A stretch of DNA of 64,000 bases from Alphaproteobacteria bacterium (GTDB lineage: Bacteria > Pseudomonadota > Alphaproteobacteria > MPNO01): NCBI GenBank assembly GCA_964291675.2, contig OZ219866.1, positions 2,976,001 to 3,040,000 of the forward strand, written 5' to 3'. Below are positions 1,682 to 25,116 of the stretch, piece by piece (position 1 is the stretch's first letter; each line of letters starts with the position of its first letter). The translations under genes and the position numbers were made by a program. Under the pieces are notes generated by a model that saw only the letters and a list, made by a program, of their open reading frames with translations, did not search any database and was not told the DNA's origin.

Positions 1682-2821
1682 ATGATTTCGCTCGACATCG
1701 ACAAGCCGCGCGAAGCCACCCTCGTGGCGGTCGCCATGTCGGGCGGCGTCGACAGCGCGGTGACGGCGGCCCTGGTCGCCGAGGCGGGCTACCGGGCGGT
1801 CGGCGTCACGCTGCAGCTCTATGACGACGGCACGGCGGCGTCGCGCAAGGGGGCGTGCTGCGCCGGGCAGGACATCTACGACGCCAGGCGCGCCGCCGAC
1901 GCGATCGGCATCCCGCACTACGTGCTCGACTACCGGAGCCGGTTCCGCGAGAGCGTGATCGAGCCCTTCGCCGACTCCTATGTCGCCGGCGAGACGCCGG
2001 TTCCCTGCGTGACCTGCAACCGGACGGTCAAGTTCCGCGACCTGATGGCGCTGGCGCGCGACTTCGGCGCCGATGCGCTGGCCACCGGGCATTACGCGCG
2101 CCGCCTGGCCGGGCCGGACGGGCCGGAGCTGCACCGCGCCGTCGATGCCGACCGCGACCAGAGCTACTTCCTGTTCGCGACGACGCGCGACCAGCTCGCC
2201 TTTCTGCGCTTTCCCCTCGGCGGCATGAGGAAGCAGGCAGTGCGCCGGGAAGCCCGGCGTCTCGCCCTGCCGGTGGCGGCCAAGCCGGACAGCCAGGACA
2301 TCTGCTTCGTGCCCGCCGGCGGCTATGCCCGAACCGTCGAGCGCCTGCGCCCCGGCGCCGCCGAGCCGGGCGACATCGTCGACCTCCGGGGCCGGCGTCT
2401 CGGCAGTCATGACGGGACGATAAACTTCACCGTCGGGCAGCGCCGCGGGCTCGCCATAGGCGGCACCGGCGAGCCGCTCTACGTGGTCCGCACCGAGCCC
2501 GCGAGGCGGCGCGTCGTGGTCGGCCCGCGCGATGCGCTGGCCCGCAGCGAGATCCGCATCGGCGGGCTCAACTGGCTCGCCGGCGCCCGGCCGCCGCCCG
2601 GCCCCGTCGCCGTGCGGGCGAAGATTCGCTCGATGCGCCCGCCCGCCGCGGCGACCCTGCGCGCGGGCTCGGGCGACGAAGCCACGGTCGCGCTGGATTC
2701 GCCCGAGCACGGCATCGCGCCCGGCCAGGCCTGCGTTCTCTACGACGGCGAGCGGGTGCTCGGCGGCGGCTGGATCCGCCAGACGCCCTTGGTCCTTGAC
2801 ACCGTCCGGGGCCGGCCGTAA
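1682..2821 (+). CDS. mnmA: tRNA 2-thiouridine(34) synthase
   Basis: [52 protein letters not shown]. Confidence 0.96.
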
Positions 2822-2836
2822 AGCGTCCCCTCCGGT

Positions 2837-2912
2837 GGCGGAGTAGCTCAGTTGGTAGAGCAGCGGAATCATAATCCGTGGGTCGCTGGTTCGAGTCCGG
2901 CCTCCGCTACCA
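2837..2912 (+). tRNA. tRNA-Met (CAT), probably elongator
   Basis: GGCGGAG..TAGCTCAGTTGGTAGAGC, anticodon arm GCGGA-ATCATAA-TCCGT, T arm GGTTCGAGTCC, ends in encoded CCA. Confidence 0.95.
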
Positions 2913-2982
2913 CTTATTTCCTTGAAATGGTTTACATTTTCCGCAGCCGAGTCCCCTCCGGCTTTGGCCGGGTCGGCGCAAC

Positions 2983-3285
2983 TTGCTCGGCGGCGCTGTG
3001 GATTTCCTGAGCCCAGCCGTTCTCCTGAGCCTTTTCAAATGGCTTTGGGATCAGTTTCCAATGTGGAGAATCCGGCGCTACGCTCCAAGCGCCAAAAGGG
3101 TAAGGCTTGTTGTCGCCTTGACTCGTTCAGACTACGAGGCCATCCCTTCAGACTTGAAGGAAGGCATCATGTTCCTTCAGTTACCCGACCAGCCACCAGA
3201 TCAAGGCGACCGGCCCCCCGACCCAGACGGTCACGAGAAGAACGAGCTGGACGGCACCGAGCCATCCGGGACGAAGGGGGAATGA
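2983..3285 (+). CDS. Hypothetical protein or gene fragment (lower GC, next to tRNA)
   Basis: 100-aa ORF with atypical composition; start codon uncertain. Confidence 0.4.
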   Translation: MLGGAVDFLSPAVLLSLFKWLWDQFPMWRIRRYAPSAKRVRLVVALTRSDYEAIPSDLKEGIMFLQLPDQPPDQGDRPPDPDGHEKNELDGTEPSGTKGE

Positions 3286-3755
3286 CCTCTTCGCCTCTTC
3301 GTACATGAGTTCCATGGAATCAATATAGTCTTCGTCAAGATTCTGGTAAAGCCAGTACATCGCTGGGGCAGCGTTGATCGTCGGTCACAGCCCAAGTCAC
3401 CCGGAGACCGCCAATTGCGCGCTCTGGGCGTCCATGGTCCCCCGGTTCGTCGTCCCCGACCGCCGCGCCCGCCGTACCGACAGTGTCGTACTTCGCAAGC
3501 TCCGGGCTCCCCGGCGAGGCCGGGACCCGTTCCCGTCCGATAGCGGGCGTCGACACGCATTTAAGAGAGAGTATTTGACAAGATTATCCATCCATGATAG
3601 TATTTCTAAAGGAATGTATCAATGATCCTTCATAAATACTTGAAAAGTCCTGAATTCTGTCTTAGCGTTCCCGGCCTCTGGGCGAGCGGCCCCGGCCGGG
3701 AGGGTGCTTCCGGCGAACGGCTTGACAGCGACCCCAGCGGTTCGGGAGGCATCTC

Positions 3756-19848: not shown

Positions 19849-20061
19849 ATGTCAAGGACAGCAACCCTGTCGTCCAAGTTCCAGATCTCGATCCCGAAGG
19901 CGGTGCGAACGGCTCGGCAATGGGAAGCCGGGCAGGTCTTCGCCTTCATCCCCAAGGGAACCGGCGTCCTCCTCGTTCCGGTCCCGGATCGCGACGCGCT
20001 CGCCGGCATCGCCGATGGCGCCGCGACGGACGGCTACCGCGATCGCTCGGATCGGCGCTGA
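19849..20061 (+). CDS. AbrB/MazE-family antitoxin
   Basis: ATLSSKFQISIPKAVR..W.AGQ. Confidence 0.88.
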   Translation: MSRTATLSSKFQISIPKAVRTARQWEAGQVFAFIPKGTGVLLVPVPDRDALAGIADGAATDGYRDRSDRR

Positions 20062-20435
20062 TGCGCCTCGTCGACAGCTCGGCCTGGATCGAGTGGCTGA
20101 TCGGCTCGCCCGTGGGAGAGGCCGTTGCGGAGCGCCTTCCGGAACAGCCTGCCTGGCTGGTTCCGACCATCGTCCAGCTCGAGCTCGCGAAGTGGCTCAC
20201 CCGGGAGCGTGGCGAGGACGAGGCCGATCGGGCGATCGCCTTCACCCAGGTCTGCAGCGTCGCCCCCCTGGACACGGAGATCGCTCTCGCCGCCGCCGAG
20301 GCCTGCCGTACGCACGGCCTCGCAACCGCGGACGCCATCGTCTTCGCCACCGCCCGTGCGCATGAGGCCGACCTGCTGACCTGCGATCGCCACTTCGAAG
20401 GCCTCCCCGGCACGATCCTCATCCCCAAGACCTGA
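20061..20435 (+). CDS. vapC: PIN-domain toxin
   Basis: LVDSSAWIE, VPTIVQLE, LATADAIVFATA, LLTCD; TGATG coupling. Confidence 0.9.
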   Translation: MRLVDSSAWIEWLIGSPVGEAVAERLPEQPAWLVPTIVQLELAKWLTRERGEDEADRAIAFTQVCSVAPLDTEIALAAAEACRTHGLATADAIVFATARAHEADLLTCDRHFEGLPGTILIPKT

Positions 20436-20517
20436 GCCGGCGCCATTTTCCCCTCCGGGCGGCGCGTCGCTTCGGGCGGGGCGGAGAACGCCGGCGAGGC
20501 CCGCCCCGCCATCCCCG

Positions 20518-20733
20518 CCCCGTCATGGCCGGCCCCCGGATCGAGTCCGGGGGCGATCCGGCCATCCATGCCGCCTCGCGGCCCGCGAGGCGGTGGGTCG
20601 GGAGGGGCGGCGGCGCCAGTGGGTGCCCGGATCAGCCCCCTTCGTCATGGCCGGACTTGATCCGGCCATCCACGCGGCCTCTCCGCCCGCACGACGGTCC
20701 GACGAGAGGGGCGGCGGCGCCAGTGGGTGCCCG
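20518..20733. repeat. REP family 1 cluster (last unit interrupted by IS)
   Basis: CGTCATGGCCGG..GATCCGGCCATCCA units; final GTGGGTGCCCG continues at 22095. Confidence 0.85.
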
Positions 20734-20812
20734 ATGGAGTGGACGCCCCCTCCGACGGCATCTGTGTGCCAAAGTGGCGGTGTCATCAACCCACTTGGAG
20801 GAGGGAGCATCC

Positions 20813-21844
20813 ATGGCCGAGGTTAGCATGATCGGGATCGATCTTTCGAAGCGGAGTTTTCAGCTGCACGGGATGTGCGCGGACGGCTCGGTGGGTTTCC
20901 GCCGGACGCTGAGCCGCGGCAGGCTGCTCGCCTTTGTGGCGCGTCAGCCGCGCTGCGTGGTGGCGATGGAGGCGTGCGGGGGTGCGCATCACTGGGGTCG
21001 CGAGATCCTCGATCTGGGCCATGAGGTGCGGCTGGTGCCGCCGGTCTATGTGAAGCCCTTCGTGAAGCGCCAGAAGAACGATGCGGCGGATGCGGCGGCG
21101 ATCTGCGAGGCGGCGTCGCGGCCGACCATGAGCCTGGTTGCGGTGAAGACGGCCGAGCAGCAGAGCCGCGGCATGCTGTTCCGGGTGCGCGATCTCCTGG
21201 TGCGCCAGCGCACCCAGGCGCTCGACGCGCTGCGCGGCCATCTGGCGGAGTTCGGGCTGGTGGCGCCGAAGGGTCCGGCGAGTGTCGGCAAGCTCGCGGT
21301 GGCGCTGGAGGCTGCGCGGGCCGGTCTGCCGGACCGGGTGGGCGAGCTCGCCGGGGTGCTGCTGGAGCAGATCGCCGGGCTGGACGAACAGGTCGCCGAG
21401 CTCGACAAGGAGCTGCGCGCCGAGGCGCGGCGGGATGCGGATGCGCGCCGGCTGATGACCATACCGGGGGTCGGGCCGGTCACCGCGATGGCGATCCAGG
21501 CCTTCGCGCCGCCGCTCGACGGGTTCCGCCGCGGGCGCGACTTCTCGGCCTGGCTCGGGCTGGTGCCGCGCCAGCACACGACGGCCGGCAAGCCGCGGCT
21601 GGGCAGGATATCGAAGATGGGCCAGCGCGATCTCAGGCGGCTCTTGGTGCTCGGCGCCATGTCGGTGGTCCGCAGCGCCGGGCGCCACGACACGGTGCGC
21701 GACCCGTGGCTGGCCGGGATGCTGGCCACCAGGAAGCCGAAGAAGCTGATCGCCGTGGCGCTGGCCAACCGCACCGCGCGCATCGCCTGGGCGATGACCA
21801 CGAGACAGCAGAGCTACCGGGCGCCCGCGCCGAACACCGCCTGA
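20813..21844 (+). CDS. IS110/IS1111 recombinase (DEDD)
   Basis: GIDLSK, VAMEACG, KNDAADA, TIPGVGP, AWLGLVP, VALANR. Confidence 0.95.
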   Translation: MAEVSMIGIDLSKRSFQLHGMCADGSVGFRRTLSRGRLLAFVARQPRCVVAMEACGGAHHWGREILDLGHEVRLVPPVYVKPFVKRQKNDAADAAAICEAASRPTMSLVAVKTAEQQSRGMLFRVRDLLVRQRTQALDALRGHLAEFGLVAPKGPASVGKLAVALEAARAGLPDRVGELAGVLLEQIAGLDEQVAELDKELRAEARRDADARRLMTIPGVGPVTAMAIQAFAPPLDGFRRGRDFSAWLGLVPRQHTTAGKPRLGRISKMGQRDLRRLLVLGAMSVVRSAGRHDTVRDPWLAGMLATRKPKKLIAVALANRTARIAWAMTTRQQSYRAPAPNTA

Positions 21845-22075
21845 GCGCGGCGGATGCGGGCCGCCGTCGGCAGTGCGGGCGAGGTCTGAGGACGGGTAAG
21901 GACAAACGGTCGATGAGACGGGATCGGGAAAACCAGTTTGATCCGGCGCGCCGAAGAGCACGCGTGCCCGTATGCCATACAGGCCCGCGGCGCCGCATAG
22001 GCCGCAAGCAGAGGCCGCATAGACGACAGCACCTGACCGCACTGTCCGAACCGTTCGAAAAAAAACCTTGCACCG
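21845..22075 (+). ncRNA. Putative bridge/seek RNA of the IS1111 element
   Basis: Long 3' non-coding end containing TTGATCCGG, GTGCCCG and CATAGACG, which match target and donor; RNA ends unknown. Confidence 0.65.
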
Positions 22076-22094
22076 CCGGGGGCGTCCATAGACG

Positions 22095-22575
22095 GATCAA
22101 GTCCGGGCATGACGAGGGAGGGCCGGGGGCGACGGCGGCATGCGACGACGCGTCGCGCGTGTCGCGATCCGTGTCCCGATCCGGCGGATGGGCCGGAAAT
22201 TCGCGCGTACCGAGGCTTTGCGCCCGGTCCAGCTCATCCAAACCGGACAGCAGTGGCCTCGATCCGGGCATCCACTGGCGCCGCCGCTCCTCCCGACGGG
22301 GCGTTGTACCGGTGGCGCCAGTGGTTGCGCGGATCAAGTCCGCGCATGGGTGGCCGGATCAAGTCCGGCCATGACGGGGTGGGGGTGGCGGTGGAGGAGT
22401 ACGGGAGCCGGGGGCGGACCGCCCCACCCGTGGGTGCCCGGAACGAGGCCGGGGTGACAACGGAGGGGCAGGGACGGCAAGTGCGGGCGTGCGGCGATCC
22501 GTGTCCCGATCCGGCGGATGCGCCGATATCCCGCCCGGATCAAGGCTTTGCGCCCGGTCCAGCTCATATAAACCG
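22095..22575. repeat. REP family 1 cluster plus two copies of a ~80-95 bp non-REP module
   Basis: GCGATCCGTGTCCCGATCCGGCGGATG..GGCTTTGCGCCCGGTCCAGCTCAT..AAACCG at ~22164-22246 and ~22494-22575. Confidence 0.8.
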
Positions 22576-22659
22576 TCATGGTCTCGGCGGTGCTGAGCCA
22601 CCCCGTGGCATGAAACTCGGGGCGTTCGGCTGAGGGTTTGCCGATCGTCGCGCGGGTCT

Positions 22660-22870
22660 GCCGTGGCAGGATGGGAATGGTGGAGGCGGCGACGCGTGAG
22701 CGTTCCGTTTATCGGTGATGTGGTTCCCGAGATATAAACTGCTTCCGGCGGTCGGCTCCGCACCCCGTACTGTGCCCGGCCCGCGGCCGTGGACGCGCGG
22801 CAAATCGAACCGCACCCGCTCGACGGGTGCGTGTCCTTCCGACCGCTGTCCCCGCCTCCACCGTGGCGAT
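22660..22870 (+). ncRNA. Putative bridge RNA of the second IS110
   Basis: 5' non-coding end containing ATATAAAC (target-left), CGGCAAA (donor-left) and GACGG (donor-right, reverse complement); bracketed by GGTGGAGGCGG/CCGCCTCCACC stem. Confidence 0.6.
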
Positions 22871-22923
22871 GCCACGGCGCGATCCTACGCCGCCGTGGCG
22901 AGAGCGCAACGAGGAGGACAGCG

Positions 22924-24174
22924 ATGAAGACGGAAGGCTTGCACGTCGTGCGGCCGCGCGCGGCGGGTCTGGACGTGCACAAGATGGAGATCACCGCGAC
23001 GGTTCGCCTGTGCGAGGGCGAGGGCGAGCCGGTGGTGGAGACGCGCTGCTTCAGCTCGCTTCCGAGCGGTCTGGCGGAGATGGTCGCCTGGCTGACCGGT
23101 CGCCGCGTCGAGGCCGCTGTCATGGAAGGGACCGGGATCTACTGGCAGGCGCCCTTCGCGGCGGTGGAGGCGGCGGGGATCGAAGCGATCCTGGTGCACG
23201 CGCGTCAGGTCAAGCAGTTGAAGGGGCGCAAGACCGATGTCGCCGACAGCGTGTGGCTGGCCTGCGTGTGCCAGTTCGGGCTCTGCACGCCTTCCCATGT
23301 TCCCCCCGAGCCGTTCCGGGAGCTGCGCTCGCTGAGCCGCCAGCGGCGTACCCTGGTCAGGCAGCGCTCGACCGTGCGCAACCGGGTGCAGAAGATCGTC
23401 GACCGCGCCGGCCTGCGCATCGGCGGCATCCTCTCCGACGTCTTCGGCGTCAACGGCCGCAAGATCCTCGACGGGCTGGCGCAAGCCACGCCGCGCGCGG
23501 TCATCCTCGCCTCGCTCACCGGCCACGTCGCCAACAAGCTGGAGGGGCTCGGCGAGGCGCTCTCCCTGAGCCTGGGCGACAACGACCGCTTCATGCTCGG
23601 CGATCTGCTGGACGAGCATGACGCGCTCGAGGCGCGCATCGCGTCCTACGGCGAGAAGATCGACCGGCAGATGACGCCGTGGCAGGAACAGCTCCGCCTG
23701 CTGACCACCATCCCCGGCATCGACCGCATCGCCGCCTCGACCATCCTGATCGAGATCGGCCCGGATATCGAGGCGTTCGCCTCCAAGCAGCACTTCGCCG
23801 CCTGGGCCGGGCTCTGCCCCGGCAACAACGAAAGCGGCGGAAAGCGCCGCAACGCGCGCACCCGAAGGGGCTCCAAGACGCTGCGCGCCAGCCTCGTCGA
23901 ATGTGCCCACGGCGCGGCCCGAACCAAGGGGTGCCAGTTCGAGGCCCACCACCGCGCGCTCGCCGCCCGGCGCGGATACAAGCGCGCCATCGTGGCCGGC
24001 GCACACAAGATGCTGCGCATCGTTTATGTCGTGCTCAAGACCGGCAGGCCCTACTACGACCGCACCGCCGACTACGACGCGCTGATGGTCAAGCGCAACG
24101 CCCCGCGCTGGATCCGAATGCTCCGCCGCTACGGCTACATCCAACCCCGGCGCGCCGAACCCAAGGCCACCTGA
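22924..24174 (+). CDS. IS110 recombinase (DEDD)
   Basis: GLDVHK, VMEGTGIYW, KTDVADS, TIPGI, AGLCPGNNESGGK. Confidence 0.95.
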   Translation: MKTEGLHVVRPRAAGLDVHKMEITATVRLCEGEGEPVVETRCFSSLPSGLAEMVAWLTGRRVEAAVMEGTGIYWQAPFAAVEAAGIEAILVHARQVKQLKGRKTDVADSVWLACVCQFGLCTPSHVPPEPFRELRSLSRQRRTLVRQRSTVRNRVQKIVDRAGLRIGGILSDVFGVNGRKILDGLAQATPRAVILASLTGHVANKLEGLGEALSLSLGDNDRFMLGDLLDEHDALEARIASYGEKIDRQMTPWQEQLRLLTTIPGIDRIAASTILIEIGPDIEAFASKQHFAAWAGLCPGNNESGGKRRNARTRRGSKTLRASLVECAHGAARTKGCQFEAHHRALAARRGYKRAIVAGAHKMLRIVYVVLKTGRPYYDRTADYDALMVKRNAPRWIRMLRRYGYIQPRRAEPKAT

Positions 24175-24525
24175 CCGGCCCGCATAACGCCGGACCGCCG
24201 CGCGGGACCGCTTCGGGCCACATCGGGGAAGTCCACCGCTCGTCTCCGCCGCCCCCTTCCGGCGATCTCAGCCAACTCCCTCCCGGCGTTGGATGGGGCC
24301 CTCGCGCGCCCCCACCGAAACTGTTTCACGGCAAACCGGACAGCAGTGGACTCGATCCGGGCATCCATGCCGCCTCGCGGCCCGCGAGGCGGTGGGTCGG
24401 GAGCGCTGCCGGCGACCCCACGGCGGTTTCGTCGTCGCCGCGCGACGGCGTCTTATTAAACTTTTGCCCTGTAATCCTAATAGCGCCAAGCCTAGCTACG
24501 TTTCGTTTAATTGGGGCGCCCGTCC

Positions 24526-24770
24526 ATGTACCGGGGCGAGACCGGCCGATACGAAGCGACCGTCGTGGGCGGCGAGACGGTGCGGGCCTTCGTTCCGGCC
24601 GCCCTGCCCCCGGCGCCCCCGCTCGACTATCCTTCCCGGCGGCGTCGGCGGCAATGGAGATCCTCGAAAACTCGGGCATCGCGCGCGAGTTGACGGGCAA
24701 GAAGCGCAACCGCCGGTTCGGCTATGCCCGCTATGTCGCCATCCTCGGCGAGGGAACCGAACCGCTGTGA
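24526..24770 (+). pseudogene. Fic-family protein remnant (N- and C-termini joined, core deleted)
   Basis: N-terminus GRYEATVVGGETVRAFVPAALPP; C-terminus GIARELTGKKRNRRFGYARYVAILGEGTEPL* in another frame; no Fic HPFxxGNGR. Confidence 0.75.
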
Positions 24771-24792
24771 GCGGCCGGGCGCCTTTCGCCCC

Positions 24793-25116
24793 TCAGCACC
24801 CCAGCACCCGCACATGCCCTTCCGCGCCGTAGTCGAGCAGGAGGCGGTCGCGCGTGACCAGCGTATAGCCGAACGCCCGCGCGGTGGCGGCGAGGATGCG
24901 ATCCGCCGGGTCGGCGGGCGGCGAGCCGGGCAGGGCGCAGGAGGCGATCGGCACCGAGGGCGGCATCTCGGCCAGCGCCACCCCGGGCAGCGCGCAGAAG
25001 CGCTCGAACCATGCCCCGGGCGCGAGCGACAGGGCGATCCGGCCCTGTCGCTCCAGCATGGCGAGCTCCCACGCGGTCACCGGGGAGACGGCGAGCCCCG
25101 CGCCCGGCCCCGTCAT
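24793..25116 (-). pseudogene. vapC: PIN-domain toxin, N-terminally truncated, no antitoxin
   Basis: VSPVTAWELAML, DPADRILAATAR, LVTRD; lacks the LLDT start. Confidence 0.7.

Follow-up and report, generated by a model that had tools for sequence, protein, structure and literature searches.

A probable RNA-guided IS1111-group insertion sequence directed at the REP repeats of an alphaproteobacterial genome

The insertion sequence and its anatomy

We analysed a stretch of 64,000 nucleotides (nt) from an Alphaproteobacteria bacterium (GTDB lineage Bacteria; Pseudomonadota; Alphaproteobacteria; MPNO01), which covers positions 2,976,001 to 3,040,000 of contig OZ219866.1 in assembly GCA_964291675.2 and is called the window here; coordinates are positions in this window unless stated otherwise. 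An IS1111-type insertion sequence (IS) of 1361 bp lies at 20734-22094 on the forward strand, inside a repetitive extragenic palindromic (REP) sequence of its host. Its anatomy, its site specificity, the covariation of its guide segments with target and donor, and the consensus fold of its RNA were established in our analysis. We conclude that this IS1111-group element is very probably a DEDD recombinase system that is aimed at REP by an RNA from its 3′ non-coding region (NCR). The parts of the element are as follows.

20734..22094, +: IS1111-type insertion sequence; four genome copies with identical ends, and empty sites without target duplication
20734..20739, +: left terminal extension ATGGAG; in the circle junction it forms the right donor half; the left end is core + AT[G/A]G in every analysed element
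20740..20750, +: left subterminal inverted repeat TGGACGCCCCC; 11-bp perfect match with 22078-22088
20813..21844, +: transposase gene (tnp), 343 amino acids (aa), with a DEDD/RuvC-like N-terminal and an IS110-family C-terminal domain (PF01548, PF02371, NF033542)
21845..22094, +: 3′ NCR, with 250 nt in the window copy and 267 nt where the copy is full-length
22078..22088, +: right subterminal inverted repeat GGGGGCGTCCA, 11 bp, perfect
22089..22094, +: right terminal extension TAGA + CG core

Because CG precedes the left end and also closes the right end, the limits can be given either as 20734-22094 or, with the core counted at the left as is the IS1111 convention, as 20732-22092. The left-end pattern of core + AT[G/A]G also served to call the ends of the elements that were compared.

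The transposase matched PF01548 (E 2.3e-12) and PF02371 (E 4.5e-22), and scored 318 bits against NF033542, the profile named 'IS110 family RNA-guided transposase' (cut-off 140 bits), over profile positions 2-342 of 343. Its C-terminal half aligns to the transposase structures of ISCro4 and IS621 (the latter PDB 8wt6). Residues 249-258 read GLVPRQHT-TA, against the family motif GL-P----S/T-G, with TA aligned to SG of ISCro4; this TA variant is described as occasional in the IS1111 family in the relevant part of PMC11187229.

The subterminal inverted repeats are 11 bp and perfect in the window element, and 11-14 bp in its relatives. If the core is counted at the left and the repeat is taken as 12 bp, the terminal extensions come to 7 and 3 bp (CGATGGA + GTGGAC... 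and ...GTCCAT + AGA), the lengths given as typical of IS1111 elements in PMC11187229; the outermost pair of this 12-bp repeat is mismatched in the window element and perfect in most relatives. The left end has only 79 nt, compared with the NCR on the right, so that the long non-coding region is downstream of tnp. An Rfam scan of 20000-25000 at E values up to 1 gave two chance-level matches, neither of them inside the NCR. The element is thus a member of the IS1111 group of the IS110 family, as an earlier note made from the letters of this DNA had proposed: transposase profiles, subterminal repeats, extensions, position of the NCR and C-terminal motif all agree with that assignment.

Insertion site in the host genome

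The flanks of the element are the two halves of one REP target.

20720..20733, +: left half of the REP target, ending in GTGCC + CG core (20732-20733); uninterrupted sites read ...gcccg|gatcaag...
22095..22108, +: right half of the REP target, GATCAAGTCCGGGC, from flank comparison and empty sites

When rejoined, the flanks read GGGTGCC-CG-GATCAAG, and the insertion point within the REP is GTGCC-CG-GATCAA. The genome holds four copies of the element: the window copy (L001), one identical to it (L002), and two others of 1378 bp with 98% identity (L003 and L004). All four lie between GG[G/A]TGCC-CG and GATCAAGTCCGGGC, at the same REP position and in the same orientation, which is the outcome that the earlier note had suggested looking for. 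The uninterrupted site that the note had rebuilt from the flanks does exist, as 67 exact 14-mers GTGCCCGGATCAAG that remain empty, and 248 BLAST matches in the genome span the rejoined-flank junction. The whole 275-nt unit to which the flanks belong is also found uninterrupted in four copies with about 96% identity, reading ...gcccg|gatcaag... without target duplication.

The two 16-mers that are most frequent in the genome (157 and 155 copies) come from the REP hairpin, as do most of the top 25, while the exact target word is ranked 39th with its 67 copies. Since REP holds the top-ranked 16-mers, it was fair to call the target the most abundant repeat of the host.

Our analysis also showed that the REP cluster around the insertion (20500-20733 and 22095-22400) has two REP subtypes, …CCGGGCATGAC and …CCGGCCATGAC, and is embedded in a longer dispersed unit of about 275 nt with at least four further uninterrupted copies of about 96% identity. 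Elsewhere in the same genome, a stretch at G000:C2:1586610-1586936 (L005) is 66% identical to part of the transposase gene, which suggests a further diverged IS1111-type element or remnant.

Guide segments in the 3′ NCR

The NCR contains four short segments that correspond to the target and to the ends of the element.

21938..21946, +: right-target guide TTGATCCGG, complementary to top-strand C-CG-GATCAA (shuffles, covariation)
21964..21970, +: left-target guide GTGCC + CG, identical to the top strand, so that it pairs with the bottom strand (covariation)
21974..21978, +: right-donor guide in degenerate form, GCCAT; the consensus of the family, CTCCAT, is the complement of left end ATGGAG
22018..22026, +: left-donor guide CATAGACGA, identical to right end + CG core + first left-end base (shuffles, covariation)

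The strings on which the earlier note had built its proposal are all in place: TTGATCCGG at 21938-21946, GTGCCCG at 21964-21970, CATAGACG at both 22018-22025 and 22087-22094, and TTGCAC at 22068-22073. We compared the NCR, and 2000 dinucleotide shuffles of it, with the middle 24 nt of either the target or the circle junction. For the 9-mer TTGATCCGG, which matches the target, p was ~0.0175. The donor match was real but longer than the 8 nt that had been noted: CATAGACGA at 22018-22026 is 9 nt long, with one base reaching across the circle junction and not into the flank (p ~0.0145). All three guide matches occurred jointly in none of the 2000 shuffles.

We then fetched 80 loci with transposases 58-75% identical to that of the window element, and located the end pattern at both ends in 58 of them. 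Removal of four NCRs whose right ends were long or mis-called, and of two whose flanks were cut, left a set of 38 unique NCRs of 240-310 nt with full flanks, in which the four copies of the window genome were included. In their alignment, the three motifs of the earlier note fall on three short variable blocks between conserved blocks. Covariation was counted in 37 elements with 34 distinct targets; the window copy was excluded here because of its gap.

In this set, 158 of the 170 positions of the left-target block (the homologue of GTGCC) agreed with the five bases left of the core of the same element; permutations gave a mean of 50.4 and a maximum of 79 (0/10000 reached the observed value). 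For the right-target block (the homologue of TTGATC), 165 of 204 positions agreed with the right flank of the same element, read as its reverse complement (permutation mean 101.7; 0/10000 reached). The left-donor block (the homologue of CATAGACG) equals the element's own right end at six of six positions in 37/37 elements, and the core dinucleotide of both guides agrees with the left junction, again in 37/37 (26 CG and 11 TG). In some lineages a fourth block, with consensus CTCCAT, changes together with the left end, as in the pair CGCCAT and ATGGCG. By this comparative evidence the three motifs are real guide segments, and the target guides, donor guide and CG core of the note were borne out on positions that change with target and donor across the 37 relatives.

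In four of the 37 elements (L036, L044, L058, and L066) the right junction is CA, while the left junction and both guides have CG. These CA junctions may be the trace of an exchange with a mismatched core.

Retargeting between sister species

Among 40 relatives of the host genome, the nearest element (L088) has 86% nucleotide identity and belongs to a sister species of the same genus. It lies at GGACCC-CG-GAACAAGTCCGGGG and carries TTGTTCCGGGG and GACCCCG in place of TTGATCCGG and GTGCCCG. Its guides, GACCC and TTGTTCCGG, fit the REP variant of its own host, GACCC-CG-GAACAA, while its donor guide is the same as that of the window element and its scaffold is intact. The 14-nt target of the L088 element has 108 copies in its own host and two in the window genome; that of the window element has 67 copies in its own genome and none in the host of L088. 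In other relatives the same REP family is entered either at a second CG 11 nt further on (AACAAGTC-CG-GGCATGAC) or at the same place in the variant GGGCCC-CG-GATCAAG.

These findings bear on the rival explanation that the protein alone recognises REP, by its sequence or its hairpin, and that the NCR matches are incidental REP-like sequence. The target is indeed a palindromic REP, the guides do resemble REP sequence, and GTGCCCG by itself is within chance. However, the transposases of 58-75% identity are found at 34 different targets, mostly not REP-like, with NCR positions that change with the targets; and the sister-species element differs at exactly those guide positions that fit the variant of its host. 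Protein-only recognition is also contradicted by the reprogramming reported in PMC11187229, and we regard it as extremely improbable. The family gives a clean natural example of guide RNA retargeting, with about 34 targets within one transposase clade and, in two sister species, near-identical elements whose guides are each set for the REP variant of their own host.

Consensus fold of the guide RNA

The predicted RNA domain has the following parts in the window copy.

21908..22038, +: guide-RNA domain (seekRNA / bridge RNA), enclosed by helix 1, GGTCG 21908-21912 with TGACC 22034-22038 (consensus fold)
21921..21936, +: 5′ strands of helix 2 (GGATCGGG, 21921-21928) and helix 3 (CCAG, 21933-21936), whose 3′ partners are deleted in the window copy
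21982..22016, +: helix 5 (GGCCC 21982-21986 with G.GGCC 22011-22016) and helix 6 (GCGGC 21987-21991 with GCCGC 22001-22005)

RNAalifold was run on 35 of the 38 NCRs, with the window copy and the near-duplicates L004 and L070 excluded, and predicted 31 pairs in six helices. In this consensus, 98.1% of the cells are paired, compared with 22-45% when the partners were slid by 1-3 columns; compensatory changes were found in 13 pairs, and none of 500 column shuffles was as good. Helix 1 is 99.4% paired, with compensatory changes in two pairs. Helices 2 and 3 close an internal loop, which has the right-target guide on its 5′ side, then the helix-4 hairpin, and the left-target guide on its 3′ side. 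The helix 5/6 hairpin stands between the two donor blocks, so that both are in a multiloop closed by helix 1.

Full-length copies have a helix-1 domain of 149 nt and a helix-2 domain of about 70 nt, sizes near those of the IS1111 seekRNA species of 145-170 nt and 70-100 nt given in PMC11187229. The earlier note had asked whether the guides sit in internal loops; the target guides do so in the consensus fold of the relatives, but in the window copy's own predicted fold the 9-nt guide is paired away.

From the published mechanism of the family, we infer that the RNA is made, is bound by the transposase and is required, that a circle forms, and that a junction promoter fires. The full-length RNA would form a domain closed by helix 1, with the internal loop of helices 2 and 3 inside it. 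The 5′ side of that loop (TTGATCCGG) would pair with the REP top strand at C-CG-GATCAA, and its 3′ side (GTGCC-CG), after the small hairpin, with the bottom strand of the left half. The multiloop segments that flank the second hairpin, GCCAT (consensus CTCCAT) and CATAGA-CG-A, would correspond to the element's ends as they abut in the excised circle. By exchange at its CG core the element would then be inserted without duplication and in one orientation, into the commonest repeat of the genome, and the joined ends would build a promoter of TTGCAC, 17 bp, and GACGAT across the junction.

Several points weigh against this reading. The 7-mer GTGCCCG taken by itself is not significant (p ~0.24 in the 2000 shuffles), and the right-donor guide is degenerate in the lineage of the window element, with four Watson-Crick pairs. 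Of the loci fetched, 22/80 were left out for divergent ends or a contig cut; only ends that the pattern recognised were analysed, and the covariation count therefore describes the well-behaved part of the family. Donor covariation, with 11 end variants, is weaker than target covariation with its 34 targets, because relatives share ancestry. Lastly, single-sequence folds of the window NCR are no better than those of shuffles (z -0.35 for 21845-22094; z -0.58 for 21900-22060), and that of the full-length NCR reaches a z of only -1.73. The folds of the window NCR do not put the guides into internal loops, and the comparative fold alone is informative.

Comparison with known systems

According to PMC11187229, IS1111 seekRNAs are required and co-purify with the transposase, and have the complement of the top strand 5′ of the bottom-strand match. 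PMC11208160 predicts, for 93% of IS1111 elements, a bridge RNA in the right end; many IS1111 bridge RNAs are said there to have donor-binding nucleotides in a multiloop. The guide order of the window element (top-strand complement first) and its donor guides in the multiloop agree with both papers.

ISPa11 of Pseudomonas aeruginosa, also an IS1111 element, likewise targets the REPs of its host, and its 96-nt seekRNA, which derives from an NCR located downstream of tnp, has the complement of the top strand placed 5′ of the match to the bottom strand (PMC11187229). It is among six elements whose predicted loops were inspected by Durrant et al. (PMC11208160, Extended Data Fig. 10 legend). The window element has a different host clade, REP and guides, a distinction drawn from the published description of ISPa11.

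ISEc11 and ISXne4 are described as a natural retargeting pair, with a conserved stem and guides swapped to fit the target (PMC11187229), and the pair of the window element and L088 is alike in this. However, the target of ISEc11 is a short linear site and not a REP, whereas the retargeting found here is between two variants of one REP in congeneric hosts.

IS621 of E. coli, from the IS110 group, also has a DEDD recombinase and a guide RNA in two parts, by which target and donor are each read on both strands around a 2-nt core, and it too inserts into REPs according to the title of Choi et al. 2003. Its RNA, as described in PMC11208160, is in the left end upstream of tnp and has the reversed guide order (left-target guide 5′ of right-target guide); its donor guides are in a simple internal loop, and its subterminal repeats are 2-3 bp. 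In contrast, the window element has its RNA in the right end, donor guides in a multiloop and subterminal repeats of 11 bp. It works like the bridge RNA system, but in IS1111 form.

ISPpu9 and ISPpu10 of Pseudomonas putida (IS110 group) are REP-targeting like the window element (PMC12288879), but have no subterminal repeats. The same source gives several kinds of circular intermediate between alternative ends for ISPpu9, and a junction promoter for ISPpu10. Such modular behaviour of sub-elements is only hinted at near the window element, by a tandem array in a congeneric genome (L089, below). IS4321 and IS5075 (IS1111) have subterminal inverted repeats and asymmetric terminal extensions, as the window element has (PMC11187229). 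They insert into the inverted repeat of another mobile element, as our relative L062 does in a similar way, while the target of the window element is a REP and not a transposon end. RNA-guided targeting in IS1111, REP targeting (ISPa11, IS621, and ISPpu9) and natural retargeting (ISEc11/ISXne4) are thus already in print in these sources, and no new principle is claimed.

The 18-nt deletion of the window copy

What is particular to the window copy is the loss of a part of the RNA scaffold.

21968..21971, +: site of an 18-nt deletion, CGATTTGGACCCGATCCG in full-length copies; L003 and L004 have these bases, L001 and L002 do not

In the window copy and in the copy identical to it, 18 nt are missing after 21968, while the other two copies of the genome keep these bases. 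So does each of the 36 other unique NCRs in the alignment, and so do both congeneric elements that were read. The deletion took away the 3′ strands of helices 2 and 3, where seven of the 12 pairs have a compensatory change, so the conserved stem scaffold is intact in L003, L004 and the relatives and not in the window copy. Because the deletion is bounded by the CG of the left-target guide and another CG, both target guides survive it. In the predicted fold of the full-length RNA (-56.6 kcal/mol, z -1.73), helices 1 and 2 form as they do in the consensus; for the deleted RNA (z -0.26), the prediction pairs the orphaned helix-2 strand GGAUCGGG with the 9-nt guide. Judging from these folds, we favour, with some reserve, that the RNA of the window copy would be defective or misfolded, and that this copy would rely on the RNA of the two full-length copies, which have the same guides.

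One observation speaks against a defective copy. L001 and L002 are identical but lie at two loci whose flanks differ at ten positions, so the element must have moved or been copied since the deletion; as judged from these sequences, the deleted form probably moved. The window copy could accordingly be read as fully autonomous, with a deletion that is tolerated since the RNA still presents both target guides and the whole donor domain; the guides, helix 1, and helices 5 and 6 are indeed intact. But that reading has to accept the loss of two helices with compensatory pairs and of bases kept in every other NCR, and a predicted fold in which the freed strand pairs with the 9-nt guide. Movement after the deletion can also be explained by RNA from the full-length copies, as their guides are identical, and in the seekRNA experiments of PMC11187229 the RNA acted when supplied apart from the mini-IS. 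We consider an autonomous window copy rather unlikely.

The second deleted copy could also have come from homologous recombination or gene conversion through the repeat of about 275 nt, and not from transposition. The flanks that L001 and L002 have in common extend for about 91 nt on the left and 178 nt on the right, and the 275-nt unit is found uninterrupted four more times, which gives homology on both sides. However, all four copies lie exactly at the position that the guides specify, L003 and L004 have far less right flank in common (about 21-34 nt), and the guides predict transposition into two members of one repeat subfamily. This origin for L002 is rather unlikely in our judgement. A segmental duplication that carried L001 and L002 was considered too, and was rejected: their similarity stops about 91 nt to the left and about 178 nt to the right, inside the dispersed 275-nt repeat.

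A further alternative is that the deletion is an artefact of assembly or polishing and that all four copies are truly full length. In X3, the one non-RNA sequencing run with the element, the sole listed contig across the site carries the 18 nt. But the deleted form occurs twice in the assembly, linked to a haplotype of its own (L001 + L002 against L003 + L004) with three substitutions, one of them V42L, and a one-base difference in an A-run; and such contigs indicate presence, not absence, and drop variants. An artefact is very unlikely. As they stand, the two full-length and two scaffold-deleted copies with the same guides form a natural test set for the need of the helices and for action of the RNA in trans.

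A 75%-identical element of the same genus (L089, reverse strand, about 2741-3321) ends in four tandem units of 142 nt. All four units begin with the base that follows the left-target-guide core (ATTTGGACCC...) and extend to the right end (...GTCCACACACG). This array looks like recombination at an internal pseudo-end, because guide DNA + CG-AT resembles the left junction. The 18-nt deletion of the window copy begins at the core that is homologous to the start of the L089 unit, and ends at another CG. It is conceivable, though we hold it to be distinctly unlikely, that recombinase and RNA also act on the guide-coding DNA of their own element, where the left-target guide + CG-AT would mimic a left junction; this would explain both the tandem array and a deletion that starts at the same core. 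If true, such a self-target in RNA-guided IS elements would lead to sub-element circles, arrays, and decay of the element's own guide RNA gene.

A putative junction promoter, and sequencing runs

22068..22073, +: putative -35 TTGCAC of a circle-junction promoter, followed after 17 bp by GACGAT (22091-22094 + 20734-20735); positional conservation

The earlier note had named TTGCAC as a possible -35 box of the circle junction, and its position is conserved: TTG is found 27 nt from the element end in 33 of 40 unique NCRs. The hexamer after the 17-bp spacer is made of four right-end bases and AT of the left end, and reads CACGAT, CATGAT, TACGAT or, in the window element, GACGAT; in most NCRs it has A at position 2 and AT at positions 5-6. 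A scan of the linear copy over 20600-22300 gave no sigma-70-like promoter and no terminator-like site. We infer the promoter function of TTGCAC from the behaviour of the family as reported in the parts of PMC11187229 and PMC12288879 cited above.

In a search of sequencing runs, two RNA libraries labelled sponge metagenome had small shares (0.10 and 0.09), and a run of unrecorded kind (X3) had 0.66. Among the Logan contigs of RNA library X2, a few short ones lie on 21849-21970; one of them has 88 nt without differences, and another continues into the full-length-type scaffold of a related element. Most pieces from the Logan contigs of RNA library X1 are from relatives, as they are only 90-95% alike. 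Logan contigs show neither transcription nor ends nor strand, so these matches say nothing firm on expression or habitat, and stretches that no contig covers count as no evidence either.

Other relatives and a second IS110-family element

Among loci L008-L087, transposases 67-75% identical to that of the window element are found in records titled Alphaproteobacteria, Vicinamibacterales, Longimicrobiales, Binatia, Nitrospinota, Gemmatimonadetes, Gammaproteobacteria, and Chloroflexota. Where their NCR was aligned, the RNA scaffold has hardly changed, which suggests, from sequence comparison, a recent spread of the element family across phyla. One Hoeflea record has at least 13 copies. The relative L062 lies at CCGGGGG-CG-TCCATAGACG, a site within the right subterminal repeat of a different IS from the same family, and its right-target guide TCTATGGAC matches that site; it is an IS aimed at the end of a sibling.

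An unrelated IS110-family element was found about 480 bp downstream of the window element, at 22576 to about 24340 on the forward strand, with its tnp at 22921-24174. The transposase has 417 aa, with PF01548 and PF02371 and 265 bits against NF033542, and the left end is 345 nt, as in the IS110 group. The genome has five copies, each at TAAACCG|GACAGCAGTGG in a different type of dispersed repeat of about 276 nt, whose 16-mer AACCGGACAGCAGTGG has 68 genome copies. At least two different families of RNA-guided IS have the REP clusters of this genome as their landing pads, which is of note for annotation. The left end of this second element holds ATATAAAC (22732-22739), identical to its left target.

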